Source: a virus (taxonomy: Duplodnaviria; Heunggongvirae; Uroviricota; Caudoviricetes). Taken from it: a stretch of DNA of 10,551 nt. This document shows positions 2,575 through 9,632 of this stretch, one piece after another. The first letter of the stretch is position 1. Every line of letters starts with the position of its first letter. A program made the position numbers and the translations under genes. Below the pieces are notes generated by a model, which was given only the letters and a program-made list of their open reading frames with translations, did no database searches and was not told the origin of the DNA. Where the stretch lies: IMG/VR virus record IMGVR_UViG_2529292736_000008; one strand, 5' to 3'.

Positions 2575-3175
2575 ATGCGTAAACTTTATGCCGCCATTTT
2601 GTCCGCAGCCATTTGTCTGGCCGTATCCGGTGCGCCTGCATGGGCATCTGAACATCAGTCCACGCTGAGCGCGGGGTATCTTCATGCCTTGACGAACGTT
2701 CCCGGCAGCGATGATCTTAACGGGATTAACGTGAAATACCGTTATGAGTTTACGGACACACTGGGGCTGGTGACGTCATTCAGCTATGCAGGAGACAAGA
2801 ATCGCCAGCTTACCCGTTACAGCGATACCCGCTGGCATGAAGATTCAGTGCGTAACCGCTGGTTCAGCGTGATGGCGGGGCCGTCTGTGCGCGTGAATGA
2901 ATGGTTCAGCGCGTATGCGATGGCGGGTATGGCTTACAGCCGTGTTTCGACTTTCTCCGGGGATTATCTCCGCGTAACTGACAACAAGGGGAAAACGCAC
3001 GACGTGCTGACCGGAAGTGATGACGGTCGCCACAGCAACACGTCTCTGGCGTGGGGGGGCTGGCGTGCAGTTTAACCCGACCGAATCCGTGGCCATTGAT
3101 ATTGCTTATGAAGGCTCCGGCAGTGGTGACTGGCGCACTGACGGTTTCATCGTGGGTGTCGGTTATAAATTCTGA
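2575..3175 (+). CDS. lom: Lom outer-membrane protein (Ail/Lom family); reading frame broken by a +1 frameshift in a G7 run (3053..3059). As written the ORF stops at 3075 (166 aa); the remaining 38 codons continue in the next frame to TGA at 3173..3175.
   Basis: N-terminal 160 aa match recalled lambda Lom ([37 protein letters not shown]...). After the G-run the +1 frame reads [38 protein letters not shown], the Lom C-terminus. RBS GAGAGG 5 nt upstream of ATG. Confidence 0.85.
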
Positions 3176-3200
3176 TTAGCCAGGTAACACAGTGTTATGA

Positions 3201-3229
3201 CAGCCCGCCGGTTCAGGCGGGCTTTTTGT
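3201..3229 (+). terminator. Rho-independent terminator downstream of lom
   Basis: Stem AGCCCGCC (3202..3209), loop GGTTCA, stem GGCGGGCT (3216..3223), then TTTTTGT. It overlaps the ATG at 3197 offered by the ORF track, so that start is rejected. Confidence 0.65.
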
Positions 3230-3238
3230 GGGGTGAAT

Positions 3239-6200
3239 ATGGCAGTAAAGATTTCAGGTGTACTGAAAGACGGCACAGGAAAACCGGTACAGAACTGCAC
3301 AATCCAGCTGAAAGCAAAACGTAACAGCACCACGGTGGTGGTGAACACGCTGGCCTCAGAAAATCCGGATGAAGCCGGGCGTTACAGCATGGACGTTGAG
3401 TACGGTCAGTACAGCGTTATTCTGTTGGTGGAAGGCTTCCCGCCGTCACATGCCGGGACCATCACCGTGTATGAAGATTCCCGACCCGGTACGCTGAATG
3501 ATTTTCTCGGTGCCATGACGGAGGATGATGCCCGTCCGGAGGCACTGCGCCGTTTTGAACTGATGGTGGAAGAGGTGGCGCGTAACGCGTCCGCAGTGGC
3601 ACAGAACACGGCAGCCGCGAAGAAGTCAGCCAGTGATGCCAGCACATCTGCCCGTGAGGCGGCAACCCATGCAACCGATGCTGCAGGCTCAGCACGTGCC
3701 GCCAGCACGTCAGCCGGACAGGCTGCATCATCTGCTCAGTCAGCATCTTCCAGCGCAGGAACGGCATCAACAAAGGCCAGTGAAGCATCGAAAAGTGCTG
3801 CTGCTGCAGAGTCCTCAAAAAGCGCGGCAGCTACCAGTGCCAGTGCCGCGAAAACGTCAGAAACGAATGCGGCAGCGTCACAAAAATCTGCAGCCACTTC
3901 TGCATCCGCCGCGACCACGAAGGCGTCAGAAGCTGCCACCTCAGCCCGGGATGCGGCGGCCTCAAAAGAGGCAGCGAAATCATCAGAAACGAACGCATCA
4001 TCAAGCGCCAGTAGTGCAGCTTCCTCGGCAACGGCGGCAGGAAATTCCGCGAAGGCGGCAAAGACGTCTGAGACAAACGCTAAGTCTTCTGAGACGGCAG
4101 CGGAACAGAGTGCCTCCGCAGCAGCAGACTCAAAAACAGCGGCTGCATCATCTGCCAGCGCCGCGTCAACAAGTGCCGGGCAGGCCTCAGCCAGTGCCAC
4201 CGCCGCCGGAAAGTCGGCAGAAAGTGCCGCATCGTCTGCTTCAACAGCCACAACGAAGGCTGGCGAAGCCACTGAACAGGCCAGCGCAGCAGCGAGTTCT
4301 GCTTCCGCAGCGAAGACATCCGAAACGAACGCGAAAGCGTCGGAAACCCGTGCAGAATCCTCAAAAACGGCTGCCGCATCGTCAGCCAGTTCGGCGGCGT
4401 CATCGGCATCATCTGCGTCTGCTTCAAAAGATGAGGCGACCAGACAAGCGTCAGCAGCGAAGAGCAGCGCCACGACGGCATCCACGAAGGCGACAGAGGC
4501 AGCTGGCAGTGCGACGGCGGCAGCACAGAGCAAAAGTACGGCGGAATCCGCGGCAACGCGCGCCGAGACAGCGGCAAAACGGGCAGAGGATATTGCATCC
4601 GCCGTGGCGCTTGAGGATGCGAGCACGACGAAAAAGGGGGTAGTACAGCTCAGCAGTGCGACCAACAGTACGTCTGAAACGCTGGCGGCAACGCCAAAGG
4701 CAGTAAAATCAGCCTATGACAATGCAGAGAAACGTCTGCAGAAAGACCAGAACGGCGCTGATATACCCGATAAGGGACACTTCCTGAACAACATTAACGC
4801 GGTCAGTAAAACAGACTTTGCTGATAAGCGCGGTATGCGTTATGTGCGGGTTAATGCTCCTGCAGGTGCAACATCTGGAAAATATTACCCTGTTGTTGTT
4901 ATGCGTTCTGCTGGCTCAGTAAGCGAACTGGCATCAAGGGTCATTATCACCACGGCAACGCGAACCGCAGGCGATCCGATGAATAACTGCGAGTTTAACG
5001 GATTTGTTATGCCTGGTGGCTGGACTGACAGGGGGCGTTATGCTTATGGCATGTTCTGGCAATATCAAAACAATGAACGAGCCATCCACTCAATAATGAT
5101 GAGTAATAAGGGCGATGATTTGCGCTCTGTGTTCTATGTTGATGGCGCTGCTTTCCCTGTTTTTGCGTTTATCGAAGATGGCCTGTCAATATCCGCACCT
5201 GGTGCTGATCTCGTTGTTAATGATACGACCTATAAGTTTGGGGCAACAAATCCGGCGACTGAATGTATCGCGGCGGACGTTGTCCTTGATTTTAAGAGTG
5301 GGCGTGGTTTTTATGAGTCTCATTCGTTAATCGTTAACGATAACTTGTCGTGCAAAAAACTTTTTGCCACAGACGAAATTGTAGCGCGTGGTGGTAATCA
5401 GATTCGAATGATAGGTGGGGAGTATGGTGCATTATGGCGTAATGATGGCGCTAAAACTTACCTGCTGCTTACCAATCAAGGTGATGTTTATGGTGGCTGG
5501 AATACATTAAGACCGTTTGCTATTGATAACGCAACCGGCGAACTGATTATTGGAACCAAACTGTCCGCAAGTCTGAACGGTAATGCATTAACAGCAACAA
5601 AGCTGCAAACGCCAAGACTGGTTTCTGGTGTTGAGTTTGATGGTTCCAAAGATATTACTTTAACCGCTGCGCATGTGGCTGCTTTTGCCAGAAGGGCAAC
5701 TGATACATATGCCGATGCGGATGGTGGCGTTCCCTGGAATGCCGAATCAGGCGCTTACAATGTCACCCGCTCTGGCGACAGCTATATTCTGGTTAACTTC
5801 TATACCGGAGTCGGAAGTTGCCGGACCCTGCAGATGAAGGCGCATTACAGAAATGGAGGTCTGTTCTACCGTTCCTCAAGAGATGGCTATGGTTTTGAGG
5901 AAGACTGGGCAGAAGTTTATACCTCGAAAAATCTTCCACCAGAAAGCTACCCAGTCGGCGCACCAATCCCGTGGCCATCAGATACCGTTCCGTCTGGCTA
6001 TGCCCTGATGCAGGGGCAGACTTTTGACAAATCTGCATACCCGAAACTTGCAGTGGCTTATCCGTCAGGCGTTATTCCTGATATGCGTGGCTGGACGATT
6101 AAGGGCAAACCTGCCAGTGGTCGTGCCGTATTGTCTCAGGAACAGGACGGCATTAAATCGCACACCCACAGCGCCAGCGCATCCAGTACGGATTTGGGTA

Positions 6201-6505
6201 CGAAAACCACATCGTCGTTTGATTACGGCACTAAATCCACGAATAACACCGGGGCTCATACGCATAGTCTGAGCGGCTCTACAAGCTCGGCTGGAGCACA
6301 CTCGCACGTTGATGGGCGCAGGTTTAATACAAGCACTTTTAAAGACACCTATCAGTATGGTTCTACAGCTGTCGGAAGTAACTCATACCAGGTACAAGGG
6401 GCGGTTGGTCTGGGCGTTGGTACGATGGCGAATACGAACTCTGCTGGCGCGCACACCCACTCACTGTCCGGCACTGCTGCAAGCGCAGGCGCACACGCAC
6501 ATTGA
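3239..6505 (+). CDS. stf: Side tail fibre protein Stf, 5' portion (1088 codons), truncated by IS629; stop codon TGA (6503..6505) is supplied by the IS629 terminus
   Basis: Starts [26 protein letters not shown]..., the conserved lambda Stf N-terminus (recalled). Long Ala/Ser/Thr-rich shaft, a central lower-GC module, then lambda-like C-terminal region GAPIPWPSD...GAHTHSLSG...AGAHAH. Confidence 0.85.
3590..4640 (+). repeat. Degenerate in-frame coding repeats (Ala/Ser/Thr-rich fibre shaft) inside stf
   Basis: Recurring units such as AAKTSETNA(K/A)...SAA(A/T)SAS at DNA ~3841, ~4050 and ~4310; GC-rich GCN/TCN codon runs. This composition explains the long spurious ORFs on other frames and strands. 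Confidence 0.5.
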
Positions 6506-6527
6506 ACCGCCCCGGGTTTCCTGGAGA
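6503..6527. repeat. IS629 terminal inverted repeat (stf-proximal end)
   Basis: TGAACCGCCCCGGGTTTCCTGGAGA; reverse complement of 7787..7811 is TGAACCGCCCCGGGAATCCTGGAGA. Confidence 0.85.
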
Positions 6528-6544
6528 GTGTTTTATCTGTGAAC

Positions 6545-7431
6545 TCAGGCTGCCAGATCATCGTTTCCGATGGAAGCATAATAAGCTTTTTCTGCTTCTG
6601 CCGGTGGGATATGGCCCAGCCTTTCCAGCAATCGTCGATTGTTATACCAGTCCACCCACGTGAGTGTGGCCAGCTCCACTTCTGTCCGGTTTTTCCAGCT
6701 CTTACGGTGTATTACCTCCGCTTTGTAAAGGCCATTGATGCTCTCCGCCATCGCGTTGTCATACGAGTCACCAGTACTTCCTGTTGATGCCAGTAATCCG
6801 GCTTCCTTAAGCCGCTGTGTGTAGGCCAGCGATACATACTGAGAACCTTTATCACTGTGATGGACTGTGCCGGACGGTCGACGGGCCCATAACGCCTGCT
6901 CCAGAGCATCCAGCACGAATGTCGTTTCCATAGACGATGAGACCCGCCACCCCACGATGTATCCGGCAAACACATCAATGATGAACGCCACATAGACGAC
7001 CCCCTGCCATGTGCTGACGTAAGTAAAATCAGCCACCCACAACTGGTCAGGACGTTCTGCCACAAACTGACGGTTTACGCGGTCGCCTGCGGCAACGGCT
7101 TTCCGGCTGACGGTAGTGCGGACCTTTTTACCCCGGAGAACACCGGCAAGTCCCATAACCGCCATGAGGCGCGCCACTGTACATCTGGCTACCCTGATTC
7201 CTTCCCGTAACAACTGACGCCAGACTTTACGCACACCGTATACCTGATGATTCCCATCGTATACGCGCAGTATCTCTTTCTTCAGCCAGTCATCGCGCTG
7301 CGCACGGGCACTGCGTTTATCAGGATGATGTCGCTGTTGCTGACAGTGTAATACGTTGACGGGGCAATATGTAGTTCACTGCATACCGGTCCGACCCCGT
7401 ACAGCTTACGCAGCTTATCCAGCAGTGGCAT
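6545..7431 (-). pseudogene. IS629 transposase OrfB (DDE integrase domain), frameshifted near 7345..7352; longest intact ORF is 6545..7234 (229 aa from GTG)
   Basis: ATG at 7431..7429 opens [28 protein letters not shown], which then runs into a stop. The following frame continues HCQQQRHHPDKRSARAQRDDWLKKEILRVYDGNHQVYGV-RKVWRQLL... through the DDE catalytic region (LWVADFTYV...HHSDKGSQY...YDNAMAES). The two halves are in different frames. Confidence 0.8.
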
Positions 7432-7757
7432 CACTTTTTCCAGAGGCGGTCGAACTCCGCCTTCGCAAAATAAGCGGAAGCCTGGCGAAGGATATCGTTA
7501 CTGCGGCGCAGTTCACGATTTTCACGTTCCAGCTCTTTCAGACGCTGACGTTCAGCGGTGGTGAGCCCGCCATCACCGCCTCCGGTATCCCGCTCATGCT
7601 GGCGTACCCAGACACGCAGAGTCTCCGGTGTACAGTCAATCTTTGGGGCAATGGAACAAATTGCCGCCCACTGTGAGTCATATTCGCCCTGACTTTCCAG
7701 AACCATACGAATCGCCCTCTGACGGACTTCGGGGGAAAAACGAGTATTTTTAGTCAT
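7431..7757 (-). CDS. IS629 transposase OrfA (108 aa, HTH)
   Basis: [30 protein letters not shown]..., IS3-family OrfA with C-terminal leucine-zipper-like region; stop TGA overlaps the orfB ATG (TGATG). Confidence 0.9.
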
Positions 7758-7786
7758 CCTGTTTACCTCTTTCTCAGGGAGTTTAG

Positions 7787-7811
7787 TCTCCAGGATTCCC
7801 GGGGCGGTTCA
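7787..7811. repeat. IS629 terminal inverted repeat (tfa-proximal end)
   Basis: See 6503..6527; 23/25 identity in inverted orientation. Confidence 0.85.
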
Positions 7812-7949
7812 CATACTGTCGGTATTGGTGCACACACGCACTCCGTTGCGATTGGTTCACATGGACACACCATCACCGTTAACGCTGCTGGTAACGCGGA
7901 AAACACCGTCAAAAACATTGCATTTAACTATATTGTGAGGCTTGCATAA
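7812..7949 (+). pseudogene. stf: stf 3' remnant (last 45 codons of side tail fibre gene, separated from the body by IS629)
   Basis: Reads (H)[44 protein letters not shown], matching the recalled lambda Stf C-terminus; stop TAA overlaps the tfa ATG (TAATG). Confidence 0.85.
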
Positions 7950-8533
7950 TGGCATTCAGAATGAGTGAACAAGCACGGACCATAAAAATTTATAATCTGC
8001 TGGCCGGAACTAATGAATTTATTGGTGAAGGTGACGCATATATTCCGCCTCATACAGGTCTGCCAGCAAACAGTACCGATATTGCACCACCAGATATTCC
8101 TGCTGGCTTTGTGGCTGTTTTCAACAGTGATGAGGCATCGTGGCATCTCGTTGAAGACCATCGGGGAAAAACGGTTTATGACGTAGCGTCAGGGGACGAG
8201 TTATTTATTTCTGAACTCGGTCCGTTACCGGAAAATGTTACCTGGTTATCGCCGGAAGGGGAGTTTCAGAAGTGGAACGGCACAGCCTGGGTGAAGGATA
8301 CGGAAGCAGAAAAAATGTTCCGGATCCGGGAGGCGGAAGAAACAAAAAACAACCTGATGCAGGTAGCCAGTGAGCATATTGCGCCGCTTCAGGATGCTGC
8401 AGATCTGGAAATTGCAACGGAGGAAGAAACCTCATTGCTGGAAGCCTGGAAAAAGTATCGGGTGTTGCTGAACCGTGTTGATACATCAACTGCACCTGAT
8501 ATTGAGTGGCCTACGAACCCTGTCAGGGAGTAA
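7949..8533 (+). CDS. tfa: Tail fibre assembly protein Tfa (194 aa), intact
   Basis: [54 protein letters not shown]...[13 protein letters not shown]; near-identical in length and sequence to recalled lambda Tfa; coupled to the stf stop. Confidence 0.9.
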
Positions 8534-8587: not shown

Positions 8588-9256
8588 CTATTTTTTCCCT
8601 GAAGCGGAAAACATTACTACAGTACCTTGAACCTTGGTTTTAACATTCTCGAAATGCTCTGAGAGTATATGTGTTAAGCCTTCTTCGGAATCTTTTGTGT
8701 TTGAAAAGATGCCTTTCTGATTGTAAATGCGCATCAGTTTTTGACCGAAGCTATTGTGCACAACTCCATCGCCAAGAATTGTGGCTCCGTATAGAGTTCC
8801 ATCGTCAGTTAAGGCCTGCGCCGCATTGCGTATTACACAGCTTTTTGTAGATATATTTCCAGGCAGGCAGTGAAGAAGGTAAAACATGGAAATGGAATCA
8901 AATTGACCATGTAACGCCGCGGGATAAGGTTCAAAAACATCATGGCTAATTTTATGTTTAATTTTTGATTCCCCAGCCCTTGTAGATGCCGCGTTCAGGC
9001 TAGCTTCGTTCAAATCCATTAAAGATATCAGACTACTCTCAGGTACGTGAGTAAGGTAAAACCCAGTTCCAACACCAATATCCAGATGGTTGTTACCTAC
9101 ATGTTCCAGAAAGTGTGGAAGAAGGTGTTCCTTTGTAGGACATCCCCATGCAAGCCGATTTGATACTCCCAAAACCCACCAGTCATAAAGCTTTAGGGTA
9201 AGTGGTGTGTAAATTTTAGCCCCATCATCTGTGTTTTTTTTCATTGATTTCACCAT
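8588..9256 (-). CDS. Putative class I (Rossmann-fold) SAM-dependent methyltransferase, 222 aa; AT-rich cargo gene
   Basis: Motif I LDIGVGTGFY (hh[DE]hGxGxG), acidic end of beta-2 (ISLMDLN), motif II/III-like FDSISMFYLLHCLP and LTDDGTLYGATIL. No DPPY/NPPY or PC-Q DNA-methyltransferase motifs, so the substrate is unclear. GC content visibly lower than the flanking phage genes. Confidence 0.7.
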   Translation of the reverse strand: MVKSMKKNTDDGAKIYTPLTLKLYDWWVLGVSNRLAWGCPTKEHLLPHFLEHVGNNHLDIGVGTGFYLTHVPESSLISLMDLNEASLNAASTRAGESKIKHKISHDVFEPYPAALHGQFDSISMFYLLHCLPGNISTKSCVIRNAAQALTDDGTLYGATILGDGVVHNSFGQKLMRIYNQKGIFSNTKDSEEGLTHILSEHFENVKTKVQGTVVMFSASGKK

Positions 9257-9312: not shown

Positions 9313-9582
9313 ATGCTGCCGCAGCATAGCGATATTGAAATAGCCTGGTATGCTTCGATACAGCAGGAGCCGAATGGCTGGAAGACCGTCACCACACAGT
9401 TCTACATCCAGGAATTCAGTGAGTATATTGCGCCACTGCAGGATGCTGTAGATCTGGAAATCGCAACGGAGGAAGAAAGATCGTTGCTGGAGGCATGGAA
9501 TAAATATCGGGTATTGTTGAATCGTGTTGATACATCAACTGCACCTGATATTGAGTGGCCTGCAAATCCTGTCAGGGAGTAA
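9313..9582 (+). CDS. tfa' - chimeric small ORF (89 aa): unrelated 35-aa N-terminus fused to a duplicated Tfa C-terminal domain
   Basis: C-terminal 54 aa ([53 protein letters not shown]) parallel the Tfa C-terminus at 8372..8533. ATG preceded by AAGGGG 4 nt upstream. May be a remnant or an expressed mini-Tfa. Confidence 0.5.
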
Positions 9583-9632
9583 TCATTGGGATTATGCCGC
9601 AGACACGTCGTATGCAGGAACGTGCTGCGGTT
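9415..9632 (+). repeat. Direct repeat copy 2 (~218 bp) of tfa 3' end plus hairpin
   Basis: See 8366..8582. Confidence 0.8.

Follow-up and report, generated by a model that had tools for sequence, protein, structure and literature searches.

The side tail fibre gene (stf) in a 10,551-nucleotide stretch of viral DNA, hereafter the window, is AT-richer in its centre than towards either end. The locus therefore raises the question of whether this centre is a foreign piece of DNA, whether it is a single piece and whether it serves to recognise the host. A preliminary description made from the sequence alone had taken positions 4715 to 5945 as one receptor-binding module of about 410 codons, acquired by lateral exchange. 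We find that the central block consists of three separable domains, A, B and C, rather than one module, and that the A+B cassette (4778–5659) and domain C (5660–5953) appear, on comparison with related fibres, each to have had its own history.

The DNA comes from a degenerate lambdoid (Rac-like) prophage of E. coli, of which the window covers the tail-fibre end. The window opens with an IS66-family element, which extends to about 1755 and cuts gene J short. The C-terminus of J (1756–2505) and lom (2575–3075) follow, and then the first 1088 codons of stf (3239–6502, plus strand), which were delimited from the list of open reading frames, the translation and the alignment to K-12 b1372. The true start of stf is the ATG at 3239 (MAVKISG...); an upstream ATG at 3197 was considered and rejected. 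Long antisense open reading frames over the shaft (for example 3736–4665) were also rejected as genes, being by-products of the GCN-rich repeats. The gene is an allele of the known stfR of the E. coli K-12 Rac prophage, and the annotated stfR in more than 1200 complete E. coli genomes shows 97.6–97.9% nucleotide identity to it. Phages such as 2H10 and mEp332 likewise bear StfR. An IS3-family element (IS629/IS1203-like; 6503–7811, minus strand), recognised by its rve and HTH_Tnp_1 domains and its terminal inverted repeats, interrupts stf after codon 1088; alignment to intact stfR reveals a 3-bp target duplication, CAT. The reading frame is thus broken, its last 45 codons having been split off by the element. 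These displaced codons (7812–7949, plus strand; translation ending in ...NYIVRLA and a stop) are colinear with the intact stfR of strain TUM13867. Next comes tfa (7949–8533, plus strand), assigned as the gene of the tail fibre assembly chaperone from PF02413 (E = 1.3e-44) and from the annotation of the homologous locus; a low-GC methyltransferase gene lies downstream of it on the minus strand. The position of stf, downstream of J and lom and followed by tfa, fits a lambda-type side tail fibre.

Both ends of the protein are also those of a lambda-type Stf. The N-terminal virion-attachment domain (phage_tail_N; 3239–3640, plus strand) matches PF08400 with E = 1.5e-71 and 239 bits, the cut-off being 26.6; among 5426 complete E. 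coli genomes, this domain was located at 15,385 places in 4848. It is followed by an Ala/Ser/Thr-rich repetitive shaft (3644–4642, plus strand), which has 80–86% nucleotide identity to lambda stf and carries degenerate direct repeats of 45 and 26 nt. At the C-terminal end, the Collar domain (PF07484) and the start of the His-x-His needle (5954–6502, plus strand) are found as in T4 gp37 and lambda Stf. This end matches the T4 gp37 tip (PDB 2xgf) with E = 4.9e-61, and the Pfam families Collar and Phage_fiber also match. A further hypervariable patch is located at residues ~1020–1080, in the needle/tip region. The centre has no counterpart in lambda Stf. Similarity to lambda stf in DNA stops at 4707 and resumes at 5957, with 80% nucleotide identity from there on, and similarity in protein is confined to residues 1–500 and 905–1089; the limits first given for a centre without lambda counterpart (4715–5945) were therefore right to within about 10 nt.

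The centre is indeed AT-richer, as had been noted: total GC falls from ~0.61 (3450–4650) to 0.44–0.49 (4650–5700) and is ~0.52 afterwards. The contrast with the shaft had been taken as a foreign mark, and in this respect the composition had been over-read. Across the left boundary GC2 falls from 0.79 to 0.45, while GC1 is flat and GC3 is ~0.50 on either side of the edge. The high GC2 of the shaft (0.79) stems from its Ala, Ser and Thr codons; its GC3 (0.49) is ordinary. The large GC step on the left is therefore mostly an effect of amino-acid composition and not of foreign origin. A smaller dip at synonymous positions is nevertheless real. In 4778–5659 GC3 is 0.391, and in the remaining codons of the gene it is 0.513 (Fisher p = 3.8e-4). 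In a scan for the lowest-GC3 block of that length, 4778–5659 beats all but 0.02% of shuffles (p = 2e-4), and GC at four-fold sites is 0.39 there versus 0.51–0.63 elsewhere. The last 98 codons of the interval originally delimited (5660–5953) are flank-like, with a four-fold GC3 of 0.51, and the right compositional boundary therefore lies at ~5660 and not at 5945. A synonymous-site composition that sets an exchanged cassette apart is thus found in 4778–5659 only. This synonymous-site dip does coincide with the exchanged unit. Low GC3 accompanies the A+B cassette in every context examined, being 0.39 in the window, 0.38 in K-12, 0.36 in the allele of phage Turner and 0.40 in a P2-like prophage (locus GC 0.56). 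Such low synonymous GC is consistent with a history in lower-GC phages. The dip is of moderate size, however, and might be due to codon usage under selection instead of a foreign origin.

The block is bounded on the left and divided internally by linkers. Linker 1 (4643–4777, plus strand), with a conserved motif of 43 residues, is the putative left recombination junction; in a PDB sequence search the linker, which runs on to NGADIPDK, was found to resemble residues 120–172 of Mu S. Domain A (4778–5340, plus strand; residues ~514–700) is low in GC3 and is predicted to be globular and all-beta. A Pfam search found no family for it, and a profile search for PDB relatives gave chance-level antibody matches only (E 0.006 or worse). 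The AF2 model of domain A (24-sequence alignment; pLDDT 85, pTM 0.82) is compact and all-beta, and resembles structures predicted for the fibres of other phages (TM 0.74–0.91). PMNNC.F.G...GGW.DR and ERAIHS are invariant motifs in it. The domain occurs in hundreds of 50%-identity clusters, drawn from lambdoid, P1/P2-like, T4-like, T5-like, rV5-like and 9g-like phages. That so common a fibre domain should have neither a defined family nor an experimentally determined structure is the sole mildly new point to emerge here.

Domain B (5341–5593, plus strand; residues ~701–785), also low in GC3, has the signature of a T4 gp34-type triple beta-helix and beta-prism. Pfam PF21446 spans 5225–5524 (E = 1.5e-28; 95.8–100.1 bits, cut-off 27), and the PDB entries 4uxe, 5nxf and 9x3r match domain B through gp34 residues 1036–1106, with a phmmer E of 1.2e-11 to 4uxe. 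In gp34, residues 1014–1047 and 1105–1128 form a triple beta-helix with the P4 beta-prism between them, and the whole is a shaft element (PMC5537660). Domain B matches this arrangement and would, by homology, be a shaft-type element as in T4 gp34. It also stands alone in T4-like gp34/gp37 and in many other fibres. Linker 2 (5594–5659, plus strand; motif ATKLQT.R..SGV.FDGS.DIT) is the putative right recombination junction of the A+B cassette, and its motif separates alternative domains in the compared sequences P0062, P0101, P0103 and P0024. Domain C (5660–5953, plus strand; residues 808–905), of flank-like composition, matches residues 322–415 of Mu S' (PDB 8ju3) with E = 6e-21, and Pfam PF12604 (gp37_C) spans 5717–5896 within it; it appears to be a Mu S'-like domain. 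An AF2 monomer of the whole 404-residue block (8-sequence alignment) had a pLDDT of 42.6, too low for a fold to be read from it.

The domains also separate from one another in database searches. The stretch 4778–5659, searched against 1.84 billion representative proteins, matched 2552 clusters, and these split cleanly into clusters matching residues 2–185 (domain A) only and clusters matching residues 194–293 (domain B) only. A- or B-like matches lie anywhere in fibres of 100–2682 residues, and in PHROGs different stretches of StfR match dozens of different families. The single module of about 410 codons thus gives way to A+B and C, which are independently distributed.

Turner, a lambdoid phage, locates the edges of the A+B cassette. 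Turner and the window have 92–99% nucleotide identity over residues 1–513 and 808–1020 but 50–72% over residues 514–807. Identity drops at ~4777 and returns at 5660; both transitions take place within a few codons and inside the linkers, between ...NGADIPDK and the G that follows it and between ...FDGS.DIT and LTAAH. Four-fold sites in conserved codons are 0.82–0.93 identical in the flanks and 0.22–0.32 identical, that is saturated, in A and B, where the two proteins differ by ~40%. This saturation argues for anciently diverged alleles and not for local fast evolution. In a P2-like prophage (genes O, N, M, L, X ... V, W, J, I upstream), the fibre at the position of gene H joins a P2 gpH-type N-terminus (PF12571) to the central block at 98% amino-acid identity. 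In DNA, the match to the window extends over 1395 nt at 97.5% identity, and it starts precisely with the first codon of linker 1, at 4643. The virulent siphovirus 9g shares only 5620–5905, at 92–94% nucleotide identity; its synonymous sites are saturated relative to the window everywhere but in domain C (0.82), and the GC3 of its fibre is E. coli-like in domain C alone (0.46–0.50 versus 0.25–0.37 elsewhere). Further arrangements are found in other sequences: P0062 and P0117 have A+B at 98% with an unrelated domain instead of C, P0101 has a variant of A without B, P0103 has B+C and then an S74-chaperone C-terminus, and in P0227 domain A is fused directly to the collar. 9g/JenK1, P1 and P2_2H4 share the cassette at 50–65% amino-acid identity.

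The same cassette is thus found on different anchors in unrelated phage types, and nucleotide and synonymous identity change in abrupt steps between otherwise near-identical genes (Turner, 9g, K-12). Several independent comparisons repeatedly showed the block inherited apart from its flanks, and the homologues include phages that share only part of it, 9g having domain C and the P2-like prophage the sequence from 4643 onwards. Lateral exchange, as first proposed, is strongly supported at the level of sequence by lambda, Turner, the P2-like prophage, 9g, P0062/P0117 and others, the direction and the donor being left aside. In the literature, stf genes are cited as a documented example of horizontal transfer between phages that are not related (PMC3945230). 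Among the 5426 complete E. coli genomes the A+B cassette was located at 1683 places and domain C at 2529; the full-length stfR arrangement is present in ~1231 of the 1316 genomes with the cassette. Since most E. coli copies are in one arrangement, exchange appears to be infrequent on short time scales.

Directly observed are the mosaicism of the gene, the places of its breakpoints, its composition and the fact that the domains are distributed independently. Our reading of them, which we hold to be very probable, is that the central block is a string of autonomous fibre domains shuffled between tail fibre genes. Short conserved linker motifs keep A, B and C apart and set them off from the lambda-like ends, and homologous or homeologous recombination inside these linkers could then carry domains from one fibre gene to another, across phages as unrelated as lambdoid siphoviruses, myoviruses of the P2 and P1 types and virulent siphoviruses resembling 9g. 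The A+B cassette (4778–5659) is one of several anciently diverged alleles at its slot. Recombination in the linkers is the most economical reading of how the junctions arose; for lambda and the stf/tfa region of Rac, relaxed recombination of this kind has been demonstrated by experiment (PMC3945230).

It could be argued that there was no transfer and that the break merely marks where the GCN, TCN/AGC and ACN codons of the shaft give way to sequence of an ordinary globular kind. The fall in GC2, the flat GC1 and the near-average GC3 of the shaft do explain most of the step at ~4650, and codon content remains the chief reason why that step is so large. As a complete account this explanation is unlikely and is refuted, both by the significant third-position and four-fold dip, which persists and is restricted to 4778–5659, and by the comparative evidence of exchange, which is independent of composition. 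Diversifying selection is known to act on tail fibre regions, and the centre might have diversified in place under selection for host range, without recombination; the ~40% protein difference between window and Turner in A+B would suit such a history. It is scarcely credible, however, that divergence in place would leave saturated four-fold sites in A+B directly beside flanks at 0.82–0.93, with transitions of only a few codons, or that it would yield a 97.5% identical copy on an unrelated N-terminus in the P2-like prophage. Pin/Cin/Gin-type DNA invertases accompany many stf/S genes and could instead have driven the exchange via their crossover sites. Invertase genes adjoin tfa in K-12 Rac and Turner, and stf exchanges have been ascribed to associated invertases (PMC3945230). 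The window, though, is without an invertase gene downstream of tfa, and its junctions lie in long in-frame coding linkers, far upstream of the starts of invertible segments. No cix/gix-like (Cin/Gin-type) crossover site was found in stf, although the consensus used makes this a weak test. We consider the invertase route highly unlikely.

With shuffling of domains through the linkers as the preferred reading, the question becomes what the shuffled block does. The block ends at residue 905 of 1132, the ~227 residues behind it being those of the collar, the His-x-His needle and the tip, and so does not have the distal location of a receptor-binding tip. Given this interior position, the gp37-like end behind it and the placement of tfa next to that end, A-B-C would be an interior knob-and-shaft segment that alters the length and geometry of the fibre; it might possibly provide a secondary surface for binding as well. 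The tip that primarily binds the receptor probably lies further C-terminal, and the block is probably not the primary module. The label "receptor-binding" in the preliminary description thus sits poorly with a block that includes an apparently shaft-like domain and lies upstream of a gp37-type collar, needle and tip. The opposite view, that the block is the primary receptor module and that its exchange switches the receptor, draws on the allelic and widely shuffled nature of the cassette, on domain A being confidently predicted to be globular and of a kind that often binds glycans, and on the resemblance of domain C to a portion of the Mu S' variable region. It has to be set against ~227 C-terminal residues homologous to the receptor-binding end of T4 gp37, a Tfa chaperone gene that comes after this collar/needle/tip end, the match of domain B to a gp34 shaft element and the separate hypervariable patch in the needle/tip, and we regard it as rather unlikely. 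It is comparably doubtful that domain A represents a new fold and a secondary glycan-binding site in the fibre shaft; were this so, the A+B cassette would give the fibre a second exchangeable specificity besides that of the tip.

The gene is known and its mosaicism is of the ordinary tail-fibre kind, described since about 1990, so there is nothing new in the phenomenon. StfR of Rac is already known and the biological addition is small. The host range of phages is set by the shuffling of tail-fibre domains, of which phage engineering also makes use; an exact map of the exchangeable units, together with the linkers in which natural crossovers lie, is therefore of practical use in the design of chimeric fibres.

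Among known systems, the closest is K-12 Rac StfR (b1372), which has the same architecture from end to end and the same context of J, lom, stf and tfa. Its central block has 96–100% nucleotide identity to that of the window, with four-fold sites 0.99–1.00 identical in A and B. The two differ in the needle/tip patch at residues ~1020–1080 (only 37–71% nucleotide identity), in the IS3-family element that cuts the window copy and in the gene content nearby, pinR in K-12 Rac and the methyltransferase in the window. Lambda Stf (orf-401/orf-314 in lambda PaPa) shares the PF08400 domain, the Ala/Ser shaft and linker 1 as far as ...PKAVK, as well as the collar, the His-x-His needle and a downstream tfa. 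Unlike the window fibre, it lacks A, B and C; a shorter segment of unrelated sequence joins ...PKAVK to GAPIPWPSD.

The fibres of Mu, P1 and P2 are the classical set for tail-fibre mosaicism (Haggard-Ljungquist 1992; Sandmeier 1992, 1994, as cited in PMC3945230). Mu shares the linker 1 motif (S) and domain C (S') with the window, and P1 S shares domain A at 59–64%. The whole block is present at 50–56% in the H-type fibre of the P2-like 2H4 and at 97.5% in that of the P2-like prophage. Mu S/S', P1 S and P2 H all differ from the window fibre in having other N-terminal anchors and other distal tips; Mu and P1 in addition use invertible segments, a site for which was not found in the window. In T4, residues 1036–1106 of the proximal gp34 (triple beta-helix and P4 prism) resemble domain B, and the tip of the distal gp37 (PDB 2xgf) resembles the collar and needle of the window. 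These elements belong to separate proteins of a jointed four-protein fibre in T4, whereas in the window StfR the gp34- and gp37-type elements are fused in one polypeptide carried on a lambda-type anchor.

The window allele of the side tail fibre gene stf (3239–6502, plus strand) was compared at four-fold sites with stfR of the E. coli K-12 Rac prophage. The two are 0.99–1.00 identical in domains A and B, the central cassette (4778–5659), but only 0.83–0.88 identical in the Ala/Ser/Thr-rich shaft, the Mu S′-like domain C and the collar; the window and K-12 alleles are thus mutually mosaic. Apart from this central block, a second variable patch of Stf is located at 6300–6460 (residues ~1020–1080), in the region of the His-x-His needle. 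The patch is 37–71% identical to K-12 and to the lambdoid phage Turner and 100% identical to strain TUM13867, which carries an intact stfR. The region that truly sets the specificity of Stf is probably this patch.

The fibre of phage 9g has E. coli-like GC3 in domain C only, the homologue of window 5620–5905, and across this segment the two are 92–94% identical. This match marks 9g, a virulent Queuovirinae phage, and temperate E. coli phages as recent exchange partners. No recent temperate–virulent mosaics were found among E. coli phages in published work (PMC3945230).

Two insertion sequences, both on the minus strand, interrupt the tail genes. An IS3-family element (IS629/IS1203-like; 6503–7811), with termini TGAACCGCCCCGGG... 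and ...CCCGGGGCGGTTCA and a 3-bp target duplication, CAT, breaks stf 45 codons short of its stop, leaving the remnant at 7812–7949. An IS66-family element (1–1755), encoding TnpB (656–1003) and an accessory TnpA (1003–1680), cuts J, of which ~750 nt of the 3′ end are left (1756–2505). A class I SAM-dependent methyltransferase gene (8588–9256, minus strand; GC 0.41, GC3 0.36) lies 3′ of the assembly chaperone gene tfa; it is a second cargo-like gene of low GC. A partial tfa duplicate is also observed (~9406–9632).

Several NCBI entries name fragments of this Stf-type fibre ‘short-chain fatty acid transporter’, and others terminase or ClpP (P0026, P0027, P0029, P0030, P0033, P0074 and P0089 in our protein set). 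These names look like mis-annotations or fusion artefacts.

The mechanical stf call begins 14 codons 5′ of the MAVKISG start, adding 3197–3238. The MAVKISG start is conserved and used by all homologues; the ATG at 3239 is the true start. A 309-codon antisense ORF (3736–4665, minus strand) overlies the Ala/Ser shaft and most likely arises as a side effect of the GCN/AGC-rich repeats. In lambda, a comparable antisense ORF is annotated as orf206b.
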